Positions 40,770 through 53,889 of a stretch of DNA of 64,000 nt are shown here, piece by piece. The notes beneath the pieces are model-generated. The model was not told the origin of the DNA. It did not search any database and saw nothing but the letters and a program-made list of their open reading frames with translations. Origin of the DNA: Octopus vulgaris (lineage: Eukaryota); the NCBI GenBank assembly GCA_951406725.2, contig OX597826.1:10168001-10232000 (forward strand). The letters run 5' to 3'. Both the position numbers and the translations under genes were made by a program. Position 1 is the stretch's first letter; the number at the start of each line of letters is the position of its first letter.

Positions 40770-41076
40770 CATTATTTACATTATTTACATTCGACGGATA
40801 TTTGTCCTCATCATGTTTGTTGTTAACAAAACATTTCAGCCTTCTTCAGGTGTCTTGGGGAAATTTCAAACCTGGGTTCTCATTCCCAAGGTATTTTTCG
40901 ATGTTATTATTATTGTTCAGGTCACTGCTTGGAATCGAACTCGGAATCTTGGGGTTAGTAGCCTGCGCTCTTAACCACTACACCATATGCCCGTTGTGTT
41001 AACAACAAACAAGATGAGGACAAATATCTGTCAAATGTAAATAATGTACATAATTCCTCATCTCTTAAATATAGAA
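40770..41076. mobile_element. Palindromic tRNA-hammerhead element, copy 1 (right arm reduced)
   Basis: Inverted tail/HHR remnant/tRNA head joined to cgttgtgttaac...aaatatagaa. TSD gctccagtttggaa / gctccagtctgaaa. Confidence 0.75.
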
Positions 41077-43079
41077 GCTCCAGTCTGAAAGTTCTGGAGT
41101 TGCAGGAAGTGTGAAATAATCCCTTAATTACCATTATTCCCAGGGCTGTTCTGACCTGGAACAGTAATACTTGTCAGGGTCCCATCTATGAGTTAAGTAC
41201 ATTTTTCTGAGGGTAGATTGAGCTCTTTAGCTGCAGTGAAGGCAATCAATGCAGGAGAAGGAAATAACCAAAACTAATAACCCTAACATACTCTGAGCCA
41301 GCACAAAAGAGAATGACTGATAAAATTAACTTGAGATTTGTCTAACAACACAGATTGATATTATGGAGACAACTACGAGCTCCTGTTAATGTGCATTCTA
41401 CCACATCCAGAGATAGTAGGAATTGATGAAGATCAACATCAAAGGTGTTCCAGTCATGACCAACAAAAAGGCTGTTTGTATATCTAGGACTGTAACTGTT
41501 CAGCATGTCCTTCCATTTTTAAAATAGTAGGGTGTGATTTTGCGGGAGATTTGCCTGCTATTACTTGCAGACTTAGCAGCTGCATATGGGTGGCATTACT
41601 GCATTGGACATATAGTTGAGGTAATAAATAGTAAGGTTTAAATGGCCCAACTGACCATGGGTTTCAGATATTATTGACTCTTGGTCATAATACTAACCAA
41701 AAAAAAATTTAGTTAGAATTCTGACCAAGGATCACAAGTCAGATTCTTCAAGCCGAGTCAACTGGCAGGAGATCTAGGAGTACACTACAAGTAAGATGGT
41801 TGGACAATATCCATAGTCTCATTTGGGAATCCAGCTGGAAAGTGTAATGATGGTGCTTTTTGATAGAATCCTATGGGAGAGATAGTTGAGGATTCTACCT
41901 CCATGACCCTCCTAGGATTTATGTTTGTGAAAATGGGTGGAGAGATGGTCAGAACTGTGTTGGTGTTAGAAGTTTTAAAAAAAGACACCCACTGCCCATC
42001 TTCTGGGTTTGATGGGTGTTATTGCAGGAAAGACTAACTCCAACAATACTACAAAAATATTCTTTTATTCTTTTATTTGTTTCAGTCATTAGACTACAGC
42101 CATGCAAGTGTGCTGCTTTGAAGGATTTTAGTCAAACGAATCAACCCCCAGTATTTATTTTTAAGTCTGTTACTTATTCTATCAGAGTGTTTTGCCAAAC
42201 TGCCAAGTTATGGGGGACATAAACACACCAACACTGGTTGTCAAGCATTGGTAAGACACACACACACAAACACATGATAGGCCCAGATATTTTCTAAATT
42301 TGATTTAGTTCTTTTAACCTTTACTGGCCAGAACTGAACATACTTGGCTCTACGCATGTGCACTTGGGACACGGGAACTGAGTCAGCTTGTTTTTGACTG
42401 TGGGGCACTTTCCAGAACTCTTCACATTTCATATGATGTAATTTACACATTTTATTTTGTTTTGTACCAATCAGCACAATGAATATAAAACTTCAATACC
42501 AACATAACTTAGGTACTTCAAAGGAAGATAGTTGAGAAAATTTTGGAAGCAAGTGTTACAGAGTTAAGTATCCCCTTTTTGCATCACCCCCTCAACAGTA
42601 GCATTAGTATAGTACTTGTTGTTATTTGTTCCTTCTCGAGCCACACCTGGCTCATAGGGCTGGTTTCCCGGTTTGCTTGGTGTATAGGTTCCTCACCTGG
42701 ACGGGACTCCGGTCCATCGCAGGCAAGCTGCAAGATGCAGGAGGAAAGAGTGAGAGAAAGTTGTGCTCGAAAGAGTCAACAGAAGTTCGCCATTACCTTC
42801 TGCCGGAGCCGCATTGAGCTTAGGTGTTTCGTTCATAAACACACATACATCGCCCGATCTAAGATTCAAACCTGCGATCCCTCGACTGCGAGTCTGCTGT
42901 TCTAACCACTAGGCCATGTGCCTCCACAGTATAGTACTTACTTTTCAGTTAAGTCTATAGTTAAGAAAGAAATTATGACCTAGTTAGAAAATGTCGAACA
43001 CGACAATTTATTATCACTTTTGAAAAAAAGTATTTTATTCTATGAGAAATTTTAACTCACTTAAAAATATTGTTTGAAG

Positions 43080-43167
43080 GGCCACTCTGCAAGGGGAAGA
43101 GATATTTCGTCAATATACACCAATCAGTGATATGGAAGCACCTGGTTATTTTGATCTTCTTATCAAG
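43080..43167 (+). CDS. CYB5RL: CYB5RL coding exon 3 (RxYTP FAD-binding motif)
   Basis: Acceptor tgtttgaag|G completes the Arg codon, then ATLQGEEIFRQYTPISDMEAPGYFDLLIK, donor AAG|GTGAGT. RxYTPxS and GYF(D/E)LLIK are FNR/b5R family motifs, and phases are compatible with exon 2. Confidence 0.93.
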
Positions 43168-43464
43168 GTGAGTTAATTGCTTTTATCATCACAATTGTCT
43201 TCTACATCACATTTGTCACCTTTGCTGTATAATTTATTGTTGTACTAACTTTTCTTCATGACCTTTGATAACCTCTGTTACGTGACCTTTGCCATACAAC
43301 TTACCTCTACACATCATCATCATTGCTATACAATCTTTACTTATACATCAACCACTTTTGCCATACATTGGCAGGTGACATTGCAAACACACCCACCTGT
43401 CAGGTGTATTGCAATGTACACCTGTATACTTACTGGAGAAACTGCAGTATATAGATGAATGTTA

Positions 43465-43760: not shown

Positions 43761-44339
43761 AGTCGTCGTTTCCCATACTTGTATAGGTTGGACAGAATTT
43801 GCTGAGGCAAATTTTCTACGGCTAGATGCCCTTCCTCTTGCCAACCCATACCTGTTTCTGAGTAAAGTAATATTTTCATGTGGCTGGTCATGATTTTAAT
43901 GGAAGGTTGCAAACGAAGGATGCTGTTTGTATGATGGTGACACTCATTTACAACAATCATACTATGTCAGGGGAAAGAGACACAAATACACACACACACA
44001 CACACACATTCACACACACACACATAGGATTAAAATCCTGCTCCAGTCATGAATGGCCATGGGATTGCACCTAGAAGGTTCCCCTCTGAGGCACAAGTCC
44101 AGACAAAGTTACGGCTTGGCACCAGTGATATCACAACTCATTTCTACTGCTGAGTGAACTGGTGCAACATGAAATAAAGTGTCTTGCTCAAGAATACAAC
44201 ACTCAGCCTGGTCCAGGCTCATAAATTCCTAATTGTAAGTCCAATAATACAGTTCTATATTTAAGAGATGAAGAATTATATACATTATTTATATTGTTTA
44301 CATTTGATGGATATTTGTCCTCATCTTGTTTGTTCTTTA

Positions 44340-44383
44340 ACACAATGTTTCGGCTGATATACCCTCCAGCCTTCATCAGGTGT
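44340..44383 (-). ncRNA. Minimal type I hammerhead motif (left arm)
   Basis: ACAC-CTGATGA-A-GGCTG(AGGG loop)CAGCC-GAAA-CATT-GTGT on the - strand. Confidence 0.65.
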
Positions 44384-44431
44384 CTTGGGGAAATTTTGAA
44401 CCTGGGTTCTCATTCCTAAGGTATTTTTTGA

Positions 44432-44484
<53 letters not shown>

Positions 44485-44698
44485 TCTCTGCTTGGAATTG
44501 AACTTGGAATCTTGGGGTTAGTAGCCCGTGCTCTTAATCGCGGGCATATGGCATAGTGGTTAAGAGCGCGGGCTACTAACCCCAAGATTCTGAGTTCGAT
44601 TCCAAGCAGTGACCTGAACAGCAACAACAGCAACAACAATAATAATAATATTGAAAAATATCTTAGAAATGAGAACACAGGTTCAAAATTTCCCCAAG

Positions 44699-44742
44699 AC
44701 ACCTGATGAAGGCTGGAGGGTATAACAGCCGAAACATTGTGT
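44699..44742 (+). ncRNA. Minimal type I hammerhead motif (right arm)
   Basis: ACAC-CTGATGA-A-GGCTG-gagggtataa-CAGCC-GAAA-CATT-GTGT. Confidence 0.65.
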
Positions 44743-44824
44743 TAAAGAACAAACAAGATGAGGACAAATATCTGTCAAATGTAGATAATGTAAGTCCAAT
44801 GCCCTAACCACTGATCCATGTGCC

Positions 44825-44874
<50 letters not shown>

Positions 44875-45475
44875 ATAGGCTTCTTTCAGTTTCTGTTTAC
44901 CAGATCTCCTCATCAGGCTTTAGCTAGCTTGAGGCTATAGTAGAAGACAATTGCCTATGGGTGGCACACAATGGAACTAAATCAAACGTTCATGAATTGG
45001 TGACAGAATGAAGAATGAAGGAGTCTCCAGGAGGAGAAACAAAAAAGATTAAACCTGAGGTTTTTAAAACAAAATAGTTTGATTTCATTGATAACCCAGA
45101 AATTAGATGTTATATCGCAAAAATCACTTTGCTTTTACTGTTAGAGAAAAACTGGTAGTGGTGGTTGTGGGGGTCCTACTACTGCTGCTGTTGCTGCTAA
45201 AACTACCACCACCACCACCACCACCACCATCACTGTGGTTGCTGCCACTGTCACCACCACTGCTGTTGCCGCTACCACTATCACTGCTGCCATTGCCACC
45301 ACCACTACTACTATGGCAACTAGCAGCAGTAGAAGTAATACTAAAAGTGGTATTGATGCTCCTAAAAGGACAGTCATTCAGGAGAGATTATTCCCCTTGA
45401 ATCTCAAGGGTCCTTGAGATTGTCCCGGGGGGGGGGGCGTGTTATCTTCCTCAATAGTATATTGGTCTTATTATT

Positions 45476-45892
45476 AAGGCGGCGAGCTGGCAGAAATGTT
45501 AGCACGCCGGGCGAAATGCTTAGCAGTATTTTGTCTGCTGCTACGTTCTGAGTTCAAATTCCGCCGAAGTCAACTTTGCTTTTTGTCCTTCTAGGGTCGA
45601 TAAATTAAGTACCAGTTACACACTGGGGTTGATGTAATTGACTTAATCCGTTTGGCTGTCCTTGTTTGTCCCCTCTGTGTTTAGCCCCTTGTGGGTAGTA
45701 AAGAAATAGGTATTTCATCTGCCGTTACATTCTGAGTTCAAATTCTGCCGAGGTTGACTTTGTTTTCCGTCCTTTCGGGGTCGATAAATTAAGTACCAGT
45801 TACACACTGGGGTTGATGTAATCAACTTAATCCGTTTGTCTGTCCTTGTTTGTCCCCTCTCTGTTTAGCCCCTTGAGGGTAGTAAAGAAATG
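45476..45892 (+). mobile_element. Meta-like SINE tandem dimer
   Basis: Full unit followed by a second unit lacking the first ~45 nt. Confidence 0.85.
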
Positions 45893-47435
45893 GATACTCA
45901 CAACCTAGTTAACTTGGCTATTAAAAGTTAGTTCCTAAGCTTGGCCATTAACAATTATGTCTGGGTTTACCATAATTTTCAGGAGGGAACCCCGACATTG
46001 GGAGTTGAAGCCGAGACCAAATGAAATATCATGCAAGGTCTGAAGAGCTGCAGTGTGTGTGTGCACAACAGCCAAATACCACATCACTGGAACTGTGAAG
46101 TGCACAGTTCTATACAAGGATTTTTATATTTTTTTCATAAAGTGGGGGGGATGACTACTGACACTAAGCTTAAGGATTATATAATGTACACGTATAAAGA
46201 AAGAATTAAAGAAAAAAGGACTCATTATATTGAATGTTATTGATAATATCGGGTGGAAATAGGGGATGCTGCAGTTCCGCAGTTCCTATACATGAGCTGC
46301 CACTAAAAACAAGGGGGAATTCGTGGCAGTGTTCAGTGACCATTGGCTAAAATGCAAACCAATCAAGTTTATGTATAAATTTTCTTTTTATATGTTTGTT
46401 TCCTTTTACACAATATTAAAACAATGGCTAAATATTTTCTGAAGCAGCGCCCCCACTAAGTTTATCTACGTATCGCCACTGCTCCGTTTATTTGTACAAG
46501 GAGAGGGTAAATGTTTATGCTAATTATATTCAATTAATAAACTGTAATCGTTATCTTTCTCTCCCACACACAATCCGTATGTGTATATTTCAGCACATAC
46601 ATGCATGCGTATGTATATGTGTGTGTGTGTGTGTGTGTTTGCCTCCAGTGCCAAAATATACTGTCACCAAAGCAGGCTGAATGTCTGGTCATCTGTGCCA
46701 AATCATCAGCATCCAAACACTCACACCTATTCATCTCATTCCATTGTTCAACATCCTATCAATTTGTTCATCTCTTATTTGGAAATGTAAAGAAATAAAC
46801 AGCTACAGTAATTTATTCCACTGTTGATCTAACATTTTTCTAACACTTATATCTAATTTTCCTCTCTCCCTCTCGCCCTCCTTTTTCCCCATCTTTTCCT
46901 TTCTTTCCCTCATTTCTCCTTATCTCTTTCCTCTCTTTTCCCTCCTTCTCTTCTCTCTCTCTCTTTCCTCCTCCCTCTCATACACAAACTCAGAATAAAT
47001 GCATTGGGGCAGAAGGTAAACCCAGTGCGTAACTGGTACTTAATTTATTGGCCCTGAAAGGATGAAAGGCAAAGTCGACCTCGGTGGAATTTGAACTCAG
47101 AACATAAAGGCAGACGAAATACCACTAAGCATTTCGCCTGGTGTGCTAATATTTCTGCCAGCTCGCTGCCTTTTTGGCATGGTTTCTTCAGTGGGACGCC
47201 CTTGCTAATACCTGCCTGGGGCAACAATAAGATAGTCTGCCCCAGGCAATGCTTTTATGGGGATGGTACTGCCAAGTCTGCTATATAAGCCTGTATAGGG
47301 GACGGGGTCAGGGAGATGCGGGTTCAGGGGTCGCCCAGGTGGCACATATTCCATCTACACCTCTGGTACTTGATGAACATAATCTCTGACCTGGTTTTGA
47401 TCCCTAGTTGTAGCTTATGATGTTAATACTTTAAC

Positions 47436-48702
47436 CCTTTAGTGTTTAGATTACTTTCTCTAATGTAATGCTTATTTGTTCACATTCATCATCATTATCA
47501 TCGTTATCATCATCATCATCATTATTTAGCATCTGCTTTCCATACTGGCTTGAGTTACACGGGTTGACTGCAAACTGGTAAGCTGGGGAGCTGCACCAGG
47601 CTCCAATCTGATTTGGCATGGTTTCTTATTTCTTTATTGTCCACAAGGGGCTAAACATAGAGGAGACAAACAAGGACAGACAAAGGGATTAAGTTGATCA
47701 CATTGACCCCCAGTGCATAACTGGTACTTAATTTATCGACCCTGAAAGGATGAAAGGCAATGTCGACCTTGGCAGAATTTGAACTCAGAACATAAAGGTA
47801 GACGAAATATCGCTAAGCATTTTGCCTAGTGTGCTAACGTTTCTGCCAGCTCGCCGCCTTATATTAATTCTCAATATATTTTATAATTTACCACTCCATT
47901 CAAATTGGTCCTACCAATCAAATTAAACTGATTTAATTTAAAACTAAAGGTATTTTATAGAAGGCACCAACTAATAAGCGATATATATAGAGGGCGGGTC
48001 AAAAGTCACAAACAGAATAAGTTCAATATGCTCTGGAATTGTCAAAGACATTCTTCAGTTTTGAATAAAATAAGCAAAATAAAATGGTGAATGTACATGT
48101 ATTTAAACCCGGAATCATGTGGTTGGGAAGCAAGCTTCTTATTTCTTTATTTATTATTCTTTATAGAGGGGACAAACAAGGGCAGACAAACGGATTAAGT
48201 CGATTATGTCGACCCCAGTGCATAACTGGTACTTAATTTATCGGCCCTGAAAGGATGAAAGGCAAAGTTGACCTTGGCGGAATTTGAACTCAGAACGTAA
48301 CGGCAAACGAAATACAGCTACACATTTCGCCCGGTGTGCTAACTTTTCTGCCGCCTTCATAAAGGCAGACGAAATACCGCTAAGCATTTCGCCTGGTGTG
48401 CTGTTGTTTCTGCCAGCTCGCCACCTTTTTGGCATGGTTTCTTCAGTGGGACGCCCTTGCTAACACCAACCTCTCCAAGAGTGTAATGTGTTGTCGCTTC
48501 CAGCATGGGTGTCAGTTATGTGACACCAACAACAGCCACGGCTATGATTTCACTTGACTTAACAAGTCTTCTCAAGCAGTGATTGTTTCTTTTTAGAATG
48601 ACATTGTAGGGTATGTATGACAGGCTGGATCTGATTGGTTTAAACATAAAATAAGTAGAATATTTGGGCTGGATGTAGCCAATTTGTTTGCTAAAGTGTT
48701 TA
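47436..48702. mobile_element. Nested cluster: piggyBac-type MITE > RTE-UTR-like element > Meta-like SINEs
   Basis: MITE halves at 47436-47487 and about 48580-48702. Direct repeat tttggcatggtttctt at about 47612 and 48428 flanks the SINE block. Confidence 0.6.
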
Positions 48703-48734
48703 CACAGTGTAGCAGGCTTTATAAGTCTAATAAT

Positions 48735-48876
48735 TATTTACATTATTTACATTTGACGGATATTTGTCCTCATCTTGTTTGTTGTTAACACGTTTCGGCT
48801 GATATACCCTCCAGCCTTCATCAGGTGTCCTGGGGAAATTTCGAACCTGGGTTCTCATTCCTAAGGTATTTTTTGA

Positions 48877-48936
<60 letters not shown>

Positions 48937-49120
48937 TATTCTGGGATCGAACTCAGAATCTTGGGGTTAGAAGCCCATGCTCTTAACCACTACACCATAT
49001 GCCGACGGGCATATGGCGTAGTGGTTAAGGGCGCGAACTACTAACCCCAAGATTCCAAGTTCGATTCCAAGCAGTGACCTGAACAATAACAATAAAAATA
49101 GTAATAATAATAATAACAAC

Positions 49121-49164
<44 letters not shown>

Positions 49165-49336
49165 TAATAATAACACCATAATAACATACCTTAGGAATGA
49201 GAACCCAGGTTCGAAATTTCCCCAAGACACCTGAAGAAGGCTGGATGGTATACAAACCAAAACGTGTTAACAACAAACAAGATGAGGACTAATGTACATA
49301 ATGTACATAATTCCTCATCCCTTAAATATAGAACTG
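48735..49336. mobile_element. Palindromic tRNA-hammerhead element, copy 3
   Basis: Centre catatgccga|cgggcatatg at about 49005. HHR motifs at 48788-48828 (-) and 49227-49267 (+, degenerate). TSD TAAGTCTAATAAT at 48722-48734 and 49337-49349. Confidence 0.85.
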
Positions 49337-50261
49337 TAAGTCTAATAATGTTTAGCTTTGTGTCTCTCTGTCCTGTGTTCACATCCTGCTTGGCTTGATT
49401 TTGCTTTCCATTCCACAGCATTTAATTTTGAAAAACCAAAAAGAACTAAGCATGTGATAGGTGTTGATTCGATTGGAAATACTTCTTTCCTACAAATTTT
49501 GTGGTTTTGTACCAGTATAAGAAATCAATAGTTTTACATTTTAATTATAATACAAAAATAGGTTTGGAAATTAACAAAAATATATATAAAAAAAAAAAGA
49601 GAAATTTCATTTAGTGTTTGTTTATTATTGATTGATTTCATGTTATATTAAAAAAATTACAATGACTAACGATAAGAAATTTTGTCTGCAAGATTTTGAT
49701 TGATATAGTGCTTTATCTAGTATAATTATACCAAACCATTTTGGAAAGTATTGTATTTGAAGCACTCAGAATTATGTCTTAAATCACTAATTAAATACTA
49801 GTATTACTTATTATTTATATATTTATTTATTCTGTATCAAGTTCTGATTGAGTCAATAAAAGAAAACAGACCAGACTGTATGATATATATTATTTAGTTT
49901 GGCCCTTTGTAATTCTGAGTTCAAATCCTCTCAAAATTTAATTGTTAATATGTGGCCCATGGGAGTTTCTCAATGGCATGCCTTACCAAAAAATTACCTT
50001 AAAATTTGTTTAGTTGTGTGGTATATCTGATGATGAGTCATGTCCCATGTGACCTGCTTCTTGAACAAAAAGGGTTGCCCACGGCTGCTCTAAAGTTGGC
50101 CCTTTTGAGTTTATGAATTATGTGCTGTCAAGAAACTGGAGTTGATTCTCAATTAATGAAGCACTTCTACCTCAAGAACGAGATTTATGGCCTGTCACAC
50201 AAAAAATAAACATTTGATATTTAATCTCTCTGTAGGTGTGTATGCATGCATGTGTGCATAT

Positions 50262-50305
<44 letters not shown>

Positions 50306-50601
50306 CATTTTCATCATCATTGTATCATTTTCATCATCATTTGATGCTCAATTTTTTCATGCTTGCATGGGTGAAATGGAATTTGTTGAGACAGGTTTCT
50401 CCATGGTTGGATGCCCTTCCTGTCACTAATCCTCAACTGTTTCCAAGCAAGTTCATAGTTTGCCATAGCTAGATATGTTTTTTTCATGGAAGACTGGAAA
50501 CAAACAACCTCACATATATGACGATGATGCTCATTTACAACTATCATGTGATGTTTAGGCAAAGGTACCTGCAAACACACACACATATACACATATATAT
50601 G

Positions 50602-50831
50602 TTTCTTTATTACCCACAAGGGCCCAAACACAGAGGGGACAAACTAGGACAGACAAACGGATTAAGTCGATTACATCGACCCCAGTGCGTAACTGGTACT
50701 TAATTTATCAACCCCGAAAGGATGAAAGGCAAAGTCGACCTCGGCGGGATTTGAACTCAGAACGTAACGGCAGATGAAATACGGCTACGCATTTTGCCCG
50801 GCGTGCTAACGATTCTGCCAGCTCACCGCCT
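50602..50831 (-). mobile_element. Meta-like SINE
   Basis: Family consensus. Confidence 0.85.
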
Positions 50832-50849
50832 ATATATACACATATATAT

Positions 50850-52119: not shown

Positions 52120-53889
52120 ATATATACACACACACACATACACATACAGACATATACATACATATATAAAGGCACCATTCGAGTGTGATCGTTACCAGCG
52201 TCGCCTTACTGGCACTTGAGCCCCGTTCCAGTAGGGTGCTAAGAGCACCATCCGAGTGTGATCGTTGCAAAATTATGGAAGTATGGCAGAATGTGGTTAA
52301 GAAGCTTGCTTTGCAGTCATATGGTTTCAGGTTCAGTTTCACCGTATGGCATCTTGGGCAAGTGTCTTCTGCCATAGCCTTGGGACAAACAATTCCTTGA
52401 CAGTAAATTTAGTAGATGGAAACTATGTAGAAACCCATATATATATATATGTATGTATGTATATATATATATGTATATGTGTGTGTCTGTGCTTGTATCT
52501 ACATGTCCCCACCCTTGACAACCAGTGTTGGTTTATTTACATCCCTTAATTTAGCAGTTTCAGCAAAAGAAACCATTATAATAAGTACCAGACTTGAGAA
52601 AAATATGTACTGGAATTGATTCGTTTGACTGAATCTTTCAAGGTGATGCTCCAGCATGGCCACAGTGCACTGACTGAAATAAGTAAAAAATATAAAAATT
52701 AAAGGTAACTGATATCCAATGACCAATGAATACTGAATAATAAACAGGATTTTGACAGCCTGCTAGAAAGAGCAACCAAATCACCTTCAAATCACACTTT
52801 ACTCTTTTATAACATGTACATTTGGGAATATTTTAGATGCATTTTAGCTGGGGAAAGTTGGGATGGTTTATGGTTGGAACCCTTTTGATGACGTACTTCT
52901 TAAATCAGGGTTGACAGACAAAAGACCACCAAAAATTTTTTACTCAGGATAGAGGCAGTTTTCATTTAGTCTATATATACCAAGCTAAACAGAAGCCTTT
53001 TATTTTTCAAATTTACGCACATGTTCATTCAAATGAATTCTAAATATATGATCAATATTGAAAGGTTTAGCAGTTGAAATAGTGCAAGCATTAGTTTTTT
53101 CAAGAACTGTATGCATTCATTTCGTTTTTGGATTTGGTTTGCAAGATTCTTCATATGAGTTCGTGTGTTGAAGCATATTCTGTTGTGTCTGGGGAGAGTC
53201 ATTCTCTTTTAGTGCCTTATTATTTAACACACTCACCGGTAAAATTTCCACTTATTTCTTATTTTTATTTTCTAAAATTTTCGTTGCGTGTTGATTCTTT
53301 AGAAAATAAAAATAAGAAATAAGTGGGCATTTTACCGGTGAGTGTGTGAAATAATAAGGCACTAAAAGAGAATGACTCTCCCCAGACACAACAGCGTATG
53401 CATTCATTTAGACAATTTCTATTCCTGCTTTTACTGTAAGGACTCTAGCTGGTAAGAACTGTAAATATATCATGTAGAAAAGGTTTTTCCACAAATCTCT
53501 GTACACAGACTTAGCCAAAGCCTCATATCCTGTTCTTTCCTTATTGTTAGTAAAGTTGTTATAATATATATTATCCCATTTATCCATTTACTTTGGCCTA
53601 CATTTATAACTCGGGGTTTTTAGGGATAACTGTCTCTAATTGCCCCCACAAAATCTAGTTTCTGCTAACCTACAGAGCCAAATAAATTTGGCAACCCTGA
53701 CTTAGTTGGCTAGTAATATTTATCCCCACTTAAATGTGGATAGTCTGTTAGAACAAACTATATTGTGGAAGGTACAACGAGAAACTTTCATAATGGCTTT
53801 TGGTGCAAAATGGTCCTAACAGAACATCCATGTTAAAGTGGGGAGAAATATTAGCTCTCAGTATTGATACTGCCTCTGTCACTAATAAA

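Follow-up and report, generated by a model that had tools for sequence, protein, structure and literature searches.

Paired end-pieces of a tRNA-headed Penelope-like element form a ribozyme-bearing palindrome in the genome of Octopus vulgaris

The palindrome at positions 44246-44788 of the analysed stretch of the Octopus vulgaris genome (64 kb, hereafter the window) is almost certainly a pair of short end-pieces (pLTRs) of a protein-coding retrotransposon of the Penelope/Poseidon type, i.e. of a Penelope-like element (PLE). As the unit of an independent SINE, the palindrome is largely refuted, and both its structure and its ribozyme are explained by known PLE biology. The testable new part, as far as the sequence can tell, would be a tRNA-like promoter in the pLTR of an autonomous element, accompanied by a sharp 5' limit of the copies (the "wall") and an ORF free of terminators. 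This tRNA-like head likely works as an RNA polymerase III (Pol III) promoter that makes SINE-like copies.

Architecture of the insertion

The insertion is bounded by 12-bp target-site duplications (TSDs), TGTAAGTCCAAT, at 44234-44245 and 44789-44800 (both on the plus strand), and this sequence occurs only these two times within the 64-kb window. Between them lie two oppositely oriented units in head-to-head arrangement, just as the initial annotation had described, whose arms form a 171-nt inverted repeat with 90% complementarity. The right arm (44539-44788, +) is a pLTR copy that extends from the tRNA-like head to the short-tail site. Its tRNA-Arg-like head (44542-44617, +), a putative Pol III promoter, contains an A box at 44549-44559 and a B box at 44594-44602 and is followed by an AAC/AAT linker (44618-44650, +) and the first ~40 codons of the PLE ORF (44669-44788, +; first in-frame ATG at 44669), inside which a minimal type I hammerhead is located (44698-44743, +). 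The left arm (44246-44537, -) is a pLTR copy with an (AAT)n linker (44429-44480, -), the ORF start, a second hammerhead (44339-44384, -) and a long tail (44246-44284, -), which is present in this arm only and consists of an early part of the PLE coding region. A tRNA-like head had been ascribed to each unit; this is true of the right arm, whereas the head of the left arm is truncated and begins at head position ~19.

An older tRNA-derived SINE on the minus strand (44110-44830, approximate ends) served as the insertion target and was split in its head region. It becomes continuous again once the insert and one TSD are removed, with 13 of 21 BLAST hits crossing the point, so the proposed arrival as one insertion inside another SINE is upheld. 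The earlier count of three copies within 9 kb is correct insofar as two further insertions exist. One of them (~40771-41076) combines a full minus arm with a short tail and a plus arm with a long tail, but this second arm measures just 80 nt (11-nt TSD), and the other (~48732-49340) is a head-to-head pair with a 14-nt TSD and a 3-nt deletion at the ribozyme cut site in both arms.

Identity of the arms

Several loci picked by the ribozyme alone have coding-like sequence directly before the head. A search with the endonuclease piece yielded 30 loci, including eight segmental copies of one insertion and the query itself. In 26 of them the head follows on the same strand, three lead straight to the body and one ends early. 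Reverse transcriptase (RT) motifs typical of PLEs are located upstream of the endonuclease piece (PF00078, E=1.4e-10), and a search with the RT piece gave 539 relatives at E<=1e-30, among them proteins of 800-870 aa. The endonuclease piece, with a motif reading VYS..YKG, has no Pfam match of its own; weak C-terminal GIY-YIG matches (PF01541) were found in two of six tested relatives of the RT piece, and the C-terminus of the tRNA-headed PLE aligns to the C-terminus of an 834-aa relative (E=2e-11). The ORF (RT plus GIY-YIG-type) comprises about 840 codons, an estimate from the ATG-to-stop distance because the majority ORF breaks at an indel column after 713 codons, and its stop is placed ~20 nt before the tRNA-like head. 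A monomer of ~2.6 kb consists of this ORF, the stop, ~20 nt, the tRNA-like head, (AAT)n and the ORF start again.

In three loci (L130, L131 and L144) the supposed tail continues into the ORF, and the first in-frame ATG is found just upstream of the hammerhead, directly after head and linker; partial pLTR tandems were seen in the same loci as well as in L221, L223 and L226. The tail represents the beginning of the PLE ORF and, as anticipated, does not come from a LINE. The autonomous PLE with the same hammerhead and tail that the initial annotation proposed to look for was found, and it carries the head too. Use of PLE machinery was rightly suspected, while the idea of an independent parasite of a PLE has to be given up in favour of a pLTR of the autonomous element itself, given the 26 of 30 loci that continue into the head. 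By its ORF, pLTR, tail and hammerhead features the tRNA-headed PLE is a member of the EN+ PLEs. No Cys-rich linker was seen by eye before the endonuclease, which by the criterion given in PMC8557442 points to Penelope/Poseidon rather than Neptune/Nematis.

Every copy seen of the tRNA-headed PLE is broken by stops or frameshifts, and the median non-CpG divergence of 183 arms is 4.2%, a value biased young since the arms were chosen for likeness. A metagenome scan gave one 12-residue match. Thirty loci with GIY-YIG Pfam matches were rejected as the source of the unit, as they belong to other PLE families without the pLTR unit. A young PLE family served as a control; it is present at L067, L072 and many other places, its 781-aa ORF is intact, and a Cys-rich linker ahead of the GIY-YIG domain makes it Neptune-like. 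A simple hammerhead pattern gave no clear motif in its L067 and L072 loci. On contig C31, at least eight near-identical copies of one insertion (L093, L095, L099, L101, L102, L103, L110 and L119) mostly share their flanks, i.e. they reflect segmental amplification.

The hammerhead ribozyme

The 33-nt ribozyme core has 2,166 exact matches in the genome (2.8 Gb, 227 contigs) compared with none for a reversed control, and is thus not a chance motif. Ten of the first 100 exact matches fall within the first 1.7 Mb of a 113-Mb span (C1:0.58-1.68 Mb), an enrichment at the contig end. The majority sequence reads GACAC-CUGAUGA-A-GGCUG/CAGCC-GAAAC-GUU-GUGUU, and the hammerhead core as well as stems I and II of this candidate ribozyme are present by sequence and folding. 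At 44246-44788, Rfam and ARAGORN called neither a hammerhead nor a tRNA; the minimal type I hammerhead reported for each unit is nevertheless there, with cores at 44347-44379 (-) and 44703-44735 (+). The AACGUU palindrome that had been suggested to permit dimeric cleavage exists in the majority sequence and is intact, for example, in L010; its G is retained in 60% of the arms and otherwise gone by CpG decay or deletion. It self-pairs in folding (-3.5 kcal/mol), in contrast to AACAUU (+2.8). At the locus itself the palindrome is gone from both arms, where the ribozymes read GAAACAUU and stem III has ACAUU instead of ACGUU, decayed alike in the two.

In 37 of 260 arms, 3 nt are deleted at the cut site with the frame preserved; the deletion is seen in all arm classes and in both arms of three insertions, which suggests that RNAs with a dead ribozyme were still copied. 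No pile-up of 5' ends was found at the hammerhead cut site in the arms of the 120 surveyed loci; L215 and L220 do end there, but with microhomology. The reading as a non-LTR retrozyme was discarded, as head-to-tail arrays are absent among 89 loci and just occasional partial tandems of two units (e.g. L049, L209) were encountered.

The palindrome as an insertion pattern

The survey covered 120 loci (sets of 28, 29 and 60, plus the three in the window), 72 of which are head-to-head pairs with lengths of 183-1137 nt. One long and one short tail, as noticed initially at 44246-44788, were found in 69 of these 72 pairs. The 3' ends of the arms fall on two sites separated by ~30 nt, each insertion having one of each. 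TSDs of 10-18 nt, with one mismatch allowed, flank 38 of the 72 pairs compared with seven of 355 shuffled flank pairs (at least 10 nt), which confirms the variable TSD length; 32 of the 72 pairs have no TSD by that rule. Arms of one insertion share slightly more non-CpG variants than random pairs (25 vs. 11.5, P=0.021). Contrary to what had been proposed, it is not the palindrome that transposes as a unit, because hardly any two loci agree in its length and break-points. A MITE or other DNA transposon was ruled out by the asymmetric ends, the TSDs of 10-18 nt and the variable centre.

Head-to-head pairs, a long plus a short tail, TSDs of 10-18 nt and a minimal hammerhead are known marks of PLEs. 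An inverted, 5'-truncated copy and a one-sided tail of 30-40 nt have been described for these elements (PMC8557442), and minimal hammerheads on opposite strands, 100-700 bp apart, have been ascribed to truncated PLEs (PMC4209133). The Poseidon enzyme of anole nicks and extends both DNA strands, two start sites inside the ORF start bound the tail, and the ORF overlaps the ribozyme, whose cleavage is not required (PMC11167929). The long and the short tail of each octopus insertion match these two start sites and the two-strand priming observed in vitro, and the behaviour of the anole enzyme would account for the structure of the palindrome. The family also offers a large natural test set for the insertion mechanism of PLEs.

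In thirteen of 30 loci with the ORF start, this start is enclosed by two pLTR pieces in a small tandem, not counting four others whose second piece starts in the head. Both pLTR pieces of a tandem begin at similar positions (Spearman 0.78), seven of the 13 within 10 nt of each other (permutation P=0.0006). Near-identical starts are found in L215, L218, L220, L224, L231, L234 and L236, and L231 crosses the same tandem junction twice. This pattern suggests an RT that, on reaching the 5' end of its RNA template, moves over to the 3' end of that molecule or else works on a small circular template. Such re-entry at the 3' end would explain how pLTRs are formed.

The tRNA-like head and the 5' wall

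In the head, the A and B boxes are spaced as in a tRNA. Its nearest match is tRNA-Arg (47/73 identical) among 35 tRNA sequences from 30 genomic loci, a sample in which Arg-ACG is absent, while the head stays below the Rfam and ARAGORN thresholds for a tRNA. The two boxes are its best-conserved parts (0.946 and 0.966 vs. 0.932 and 0.908 elsewhere in the head). The tRNA derivation claimed for the head is consistent with these features, and the head probably drives Pol III transcription.

A ribozyme-anchored sample of 89 loci contained 87 heads. Of the corresponding arms, 29 stop within the head, 44 between -18 and +5 (those at -10 to -18 being mostly fold-back copies) and 14 run into the ORF. 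Thus, 44 of the 58 arms that reach the head start also end there (binomial p=2e-18 against the truncation rate within the head). A head-anchored sample gave 25 of 30 loci that start at the head and five that are ORF-linked, three of which look like one duplicated insertion. For fine mapping, overlapping samples were pooled, duplicates removed and 16 fold-back cases of 93 heads set aside; in 61 of the remaining 77 the copy ends 0-7 nt before the head, in two others it ends at 8 and 19 nt, respectively, and 14 run on. Genome-wide, 2,895 pattern matches to the head contrast with 536 to the ORF end, the two patterns being 11 nt apart, which after correction by detection rates (16/52 and 6/14) corresponds to roughly 9,400 heads vs. 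1,250 ORF ends. We infer that this hard outer limit just before the tRNA-like sequence is the expected trace of a Pol III start, and a Pol III origin of the wall seems reasonably probable on these counts.

The wall meets a short hairpin, TGCCC-AC-GGGCA at -7 to +5, and a TATAA that overlaps the ORF stop codon lies ~28 nt upstream, for which reason a stall, a fold-back or a Pol II start retain some probability. That the wall reflects ordinary 5'-truncated PLE copies is rather unlikely. The hairpin does span exactly the positions of the wall, a short fold-back copy occurs at it in 16 of 93 heads, short and ORF-linked arms share the same majority sequence, and truncated PLE ends with hammerheads on opposite strands are known (PMC4209133). 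However, the ends are spread across the hairpin and up to its 5' edge, with a hard outer limit, instead of gathering at its 3' foot; just three of 14 arms terminate within the following ~130 nt, the boxes are well kept at tRNA spacing, and the element is without TTTT. If the wall were only a stall, this would be an ordinary old PLE family, likely mis-annotated as SINE or MITE.

Upstream TATA elements are used by Pol III genes too. A wall set by a Pol II start, possibly directed by the TATAA, appears highly improbable, even though the TATAA has the usual distance from the wall's outer edge. The internal, LINE-like promoter of Drosophila Penelope (PMC2377424) offers a precedent for such a start, but it would leave the A and B boxes at tRNA spacing and the TTTT deficit unexplained, and the TATAA, which includes the stop codon of the ORF, could be incidental.

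It is also very unlikely that a separate PLE is parasitized by a SINE or retrozyme that is independent and non-autonomous, has master copies of its own and transposes as a palindromic unit. Such a family would fit the ~5-7 fold excess of heads over ORF ends, and solo copies keep both boxes, with transcription possible up to the first TTTT in the flank. The head, however, belongs to the autonomous element (26/30 loci), the palindrome varies from 183 to 1137 nt, and no column separates 66 head-start arms from 37 ORF-preceded arms, which eliminated a SINE-only subfamily for lack of a diagnostic position. Six columns differ at p<0.03 between these classes, each through more decay in the ORF-linked arms. 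The head is followed by the element body in 28 of 30 head-anchored loci and cut short after the linker in the other two, hence no other SINE with the same head was seen among these 30 heads. Two loci on contig C3, ~1 Mb apart and with unrelated flanks (L214 and L222), have an identical junction of ORF position 232 plus AA to the head. A mini-element master of this kind was dismissed, as the junction has only two matches genome-wide, and so was a version joined at the cut site (one match). The short copies would resemble tRNA-SINEs in their working, yet they are not a separate SINE family.

The reading we favour with fair confidence is that SINE-like inserts arise when the PLE enzyme reverse-transcribes Pol III transcripts starting at the pLTR head, and that no separate lineage of SINEs exists. 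As judged from anole Poseidon (PMC11167929), the enzyme would nick both DNA strands ~13 nt apart, and the two nicks would serve as primers for reverse transcription from the two start sites within the RNA, one nick per site. The resulting cDNAs would then run towards the 5' end of the RNA, ~6-7 nt before the tRNA-like +1, or stop earlier, and be joined head to head. The hammerhead would be the usual ribozyme of PLEs, and the inserts probably do not depend on it.

Pol III terminators and RNA reads

The sense strand of the 2,621-nt majority sequence (22% T) contains no TTTT and no once-interrupted T5 either; decayed copies have 0.41 TTTT per kb. The deficit reaches P=0.010-0.026 in shuffles of the first 713 codons and 0.058 and 0.20 under Markov nulls, which absorb part of the effect. 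The control PLE family, at the same treatment and T content, has eight TTTT and five TTTTT in 2,588 nt, and nine other RT/EN ORF families pooled, with one spurious frame dropped, have 41 TTTT in 11.3 kb (3.6 per kb, range 0-5.9, with none in one 555-nt ORF). Even TTT is found at 6 per kb in the tRNA-headed PLE vs. 10-30. The absence of TTTT is suggestive of the whole element being read by Pol III.

This would extend the favoured explanation to an autonomous element that is transcribed by Pol III, including its ORF, from the head in the upstream pLTR. Short inserts would then come from reverse transcription from the first tail off the 5' end of the RNA, and long ones from the second tail. Such an extension is possible but doubtful. 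Besides the lack of terminators relative to the control family, it agrees with the first in-frame ATG directly after head and linker. Its statistics, however, are borderline and concern one family only. Pol III RNA is uncapped, and its translation needs explaining. Moreover, four of five upstream pLTRs of ORF-start copies that reach the head start run into an ORF end and one stops at the head (Fisher p=0.02 vs. 44/58), so that multimeric or circular templates are needed. There is a small chance that Pol III reads a coding retrotransposon end to end, starting at a tRNA-Arg head that the element captured, and that the ORF has been cleared of Pol III terminators. If true, one transcript would give rise both to full elements and to about ten thousand inserts that resemble SINEs and bear the ribozyme, a hybrid of SINE and autonomous element and a route to the birth of SINEs from PLEs.

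Three raw RNA runs (~6% of each) and a contig set gave thousands of reads on L107:1600-2400, mostly 85-95% alike and equal in strands. The reads represent divergent copies, and the step in their depth at the head resembles the genomic step. The same reads have no start or end peaks, and none at the ribozyme cut site, where the library type would probably miss cut ends.

Comparison with known elements

With the described Penelope/Poseidon PLEs (PMC11167929, PMC4209133, PMC8557442), the tRNA-headed PLE shares a single ORF of RT and C-terminal GIY-YIG type, partial pLTR tandems, an inverted 5'-truncated copy, a tail of 30-40 nt at one end, two 3' end sites in the ORF start, an ORF overlapping the minimal hammerhead, and AT-rich targets. 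In addition, and without mention in the text available on these PLEs, the octopus pLTR holds a tRNA-derived head with A and B boxes, at which most short copies start, plus an (AAT)n linker, and the sense strand is free of TTTT. The Sm-alpha and Sj-alpha elements of Schistosoma (PMC6765202) likewise have a Pol III-type promoter followed by a hammerhead, but they are non-autonomous tandem repeats with canonical ribozymes, whereas the octopus ribozyme is minimal and belongs to the pLTR of a coding PLE. Animal non-LTR retrozymes (PMC7229834; bioRxiv 10.64898/2026.07.22.740005) resemble the unit in their type I hammerhead, their kinship with pLTRs and their size of 170-400 nt. They differ in forming head-to-tail arrays with one ribozyme per unit, in contrast to the mostly dispersed single copies and head-to-head pairs with PLE tails in octopus, and no tRNA head is mentioned for retrozymes in the available part of bioRxiv 10.64898/2026.07.22.740005.

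A Pol III promoter derived from a small RNA is also found in the terminal repeats of the TRIMp3 elements Cassandra, Helenus and Ajax. These, however, are non-autonomous LTR elements with TSDs of 4-5 bp whose autonomous partners are expected to need Pol II (PMC10886601), while the octopus repeat belongs to an autonomous PLE. A PLE pLTR with its own tRNA-like promoter would be the PLE counterpart of such terminal repeats.

The unit is like tRNA-derived SINEs in its tRNA-like head, a length of about 270-300 nt, a copy number in the order of 10^4 and 5' ends that coincide with the head. Dependence on LINEs is generally assumed for SINEs, which have a LINE tail, whereas the 3' part of the octopus unit is the start of a PLE ORF, without an A-rich or simple-repeat 3' end. 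A tRNA-headed PLE would yield SINE-like repeats from PLE machinery without a separate master. Among the tRNA-SINEs of octopus, OK, OR1 and OR2, the last is listed as a CORE-SINE (PMC4758252). An octopus repeat annotation lists PLE and SINE families, with no mention of ribozymes in its supplement (PMC13282606). Our literature search returned no account of a PLE that has a tRNA head or is driven by Pol III, and the family may be catalogued in curated repeat databases.

Genomic surroundings

An exon at 43078-43170 (+) ends in a GT donor and matches FAD_binding_6 (PF00970, E=5.7e-6), which makes it probable that the palindrome at 44246-44788 is intronic to a gene for a cytochrome b5 reductase-like protein. 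Another SINE-like repeat is present in several copies at 45472-45893, 46972-48472 and 50595-50836, one of them with an internal tandem duplication of 184 nt. Further downstream, at 53173-53401, the window contains a MITE-like hairpin with arms of 104 nt that are 95% complementary and separated by a spacer of 21 nt.
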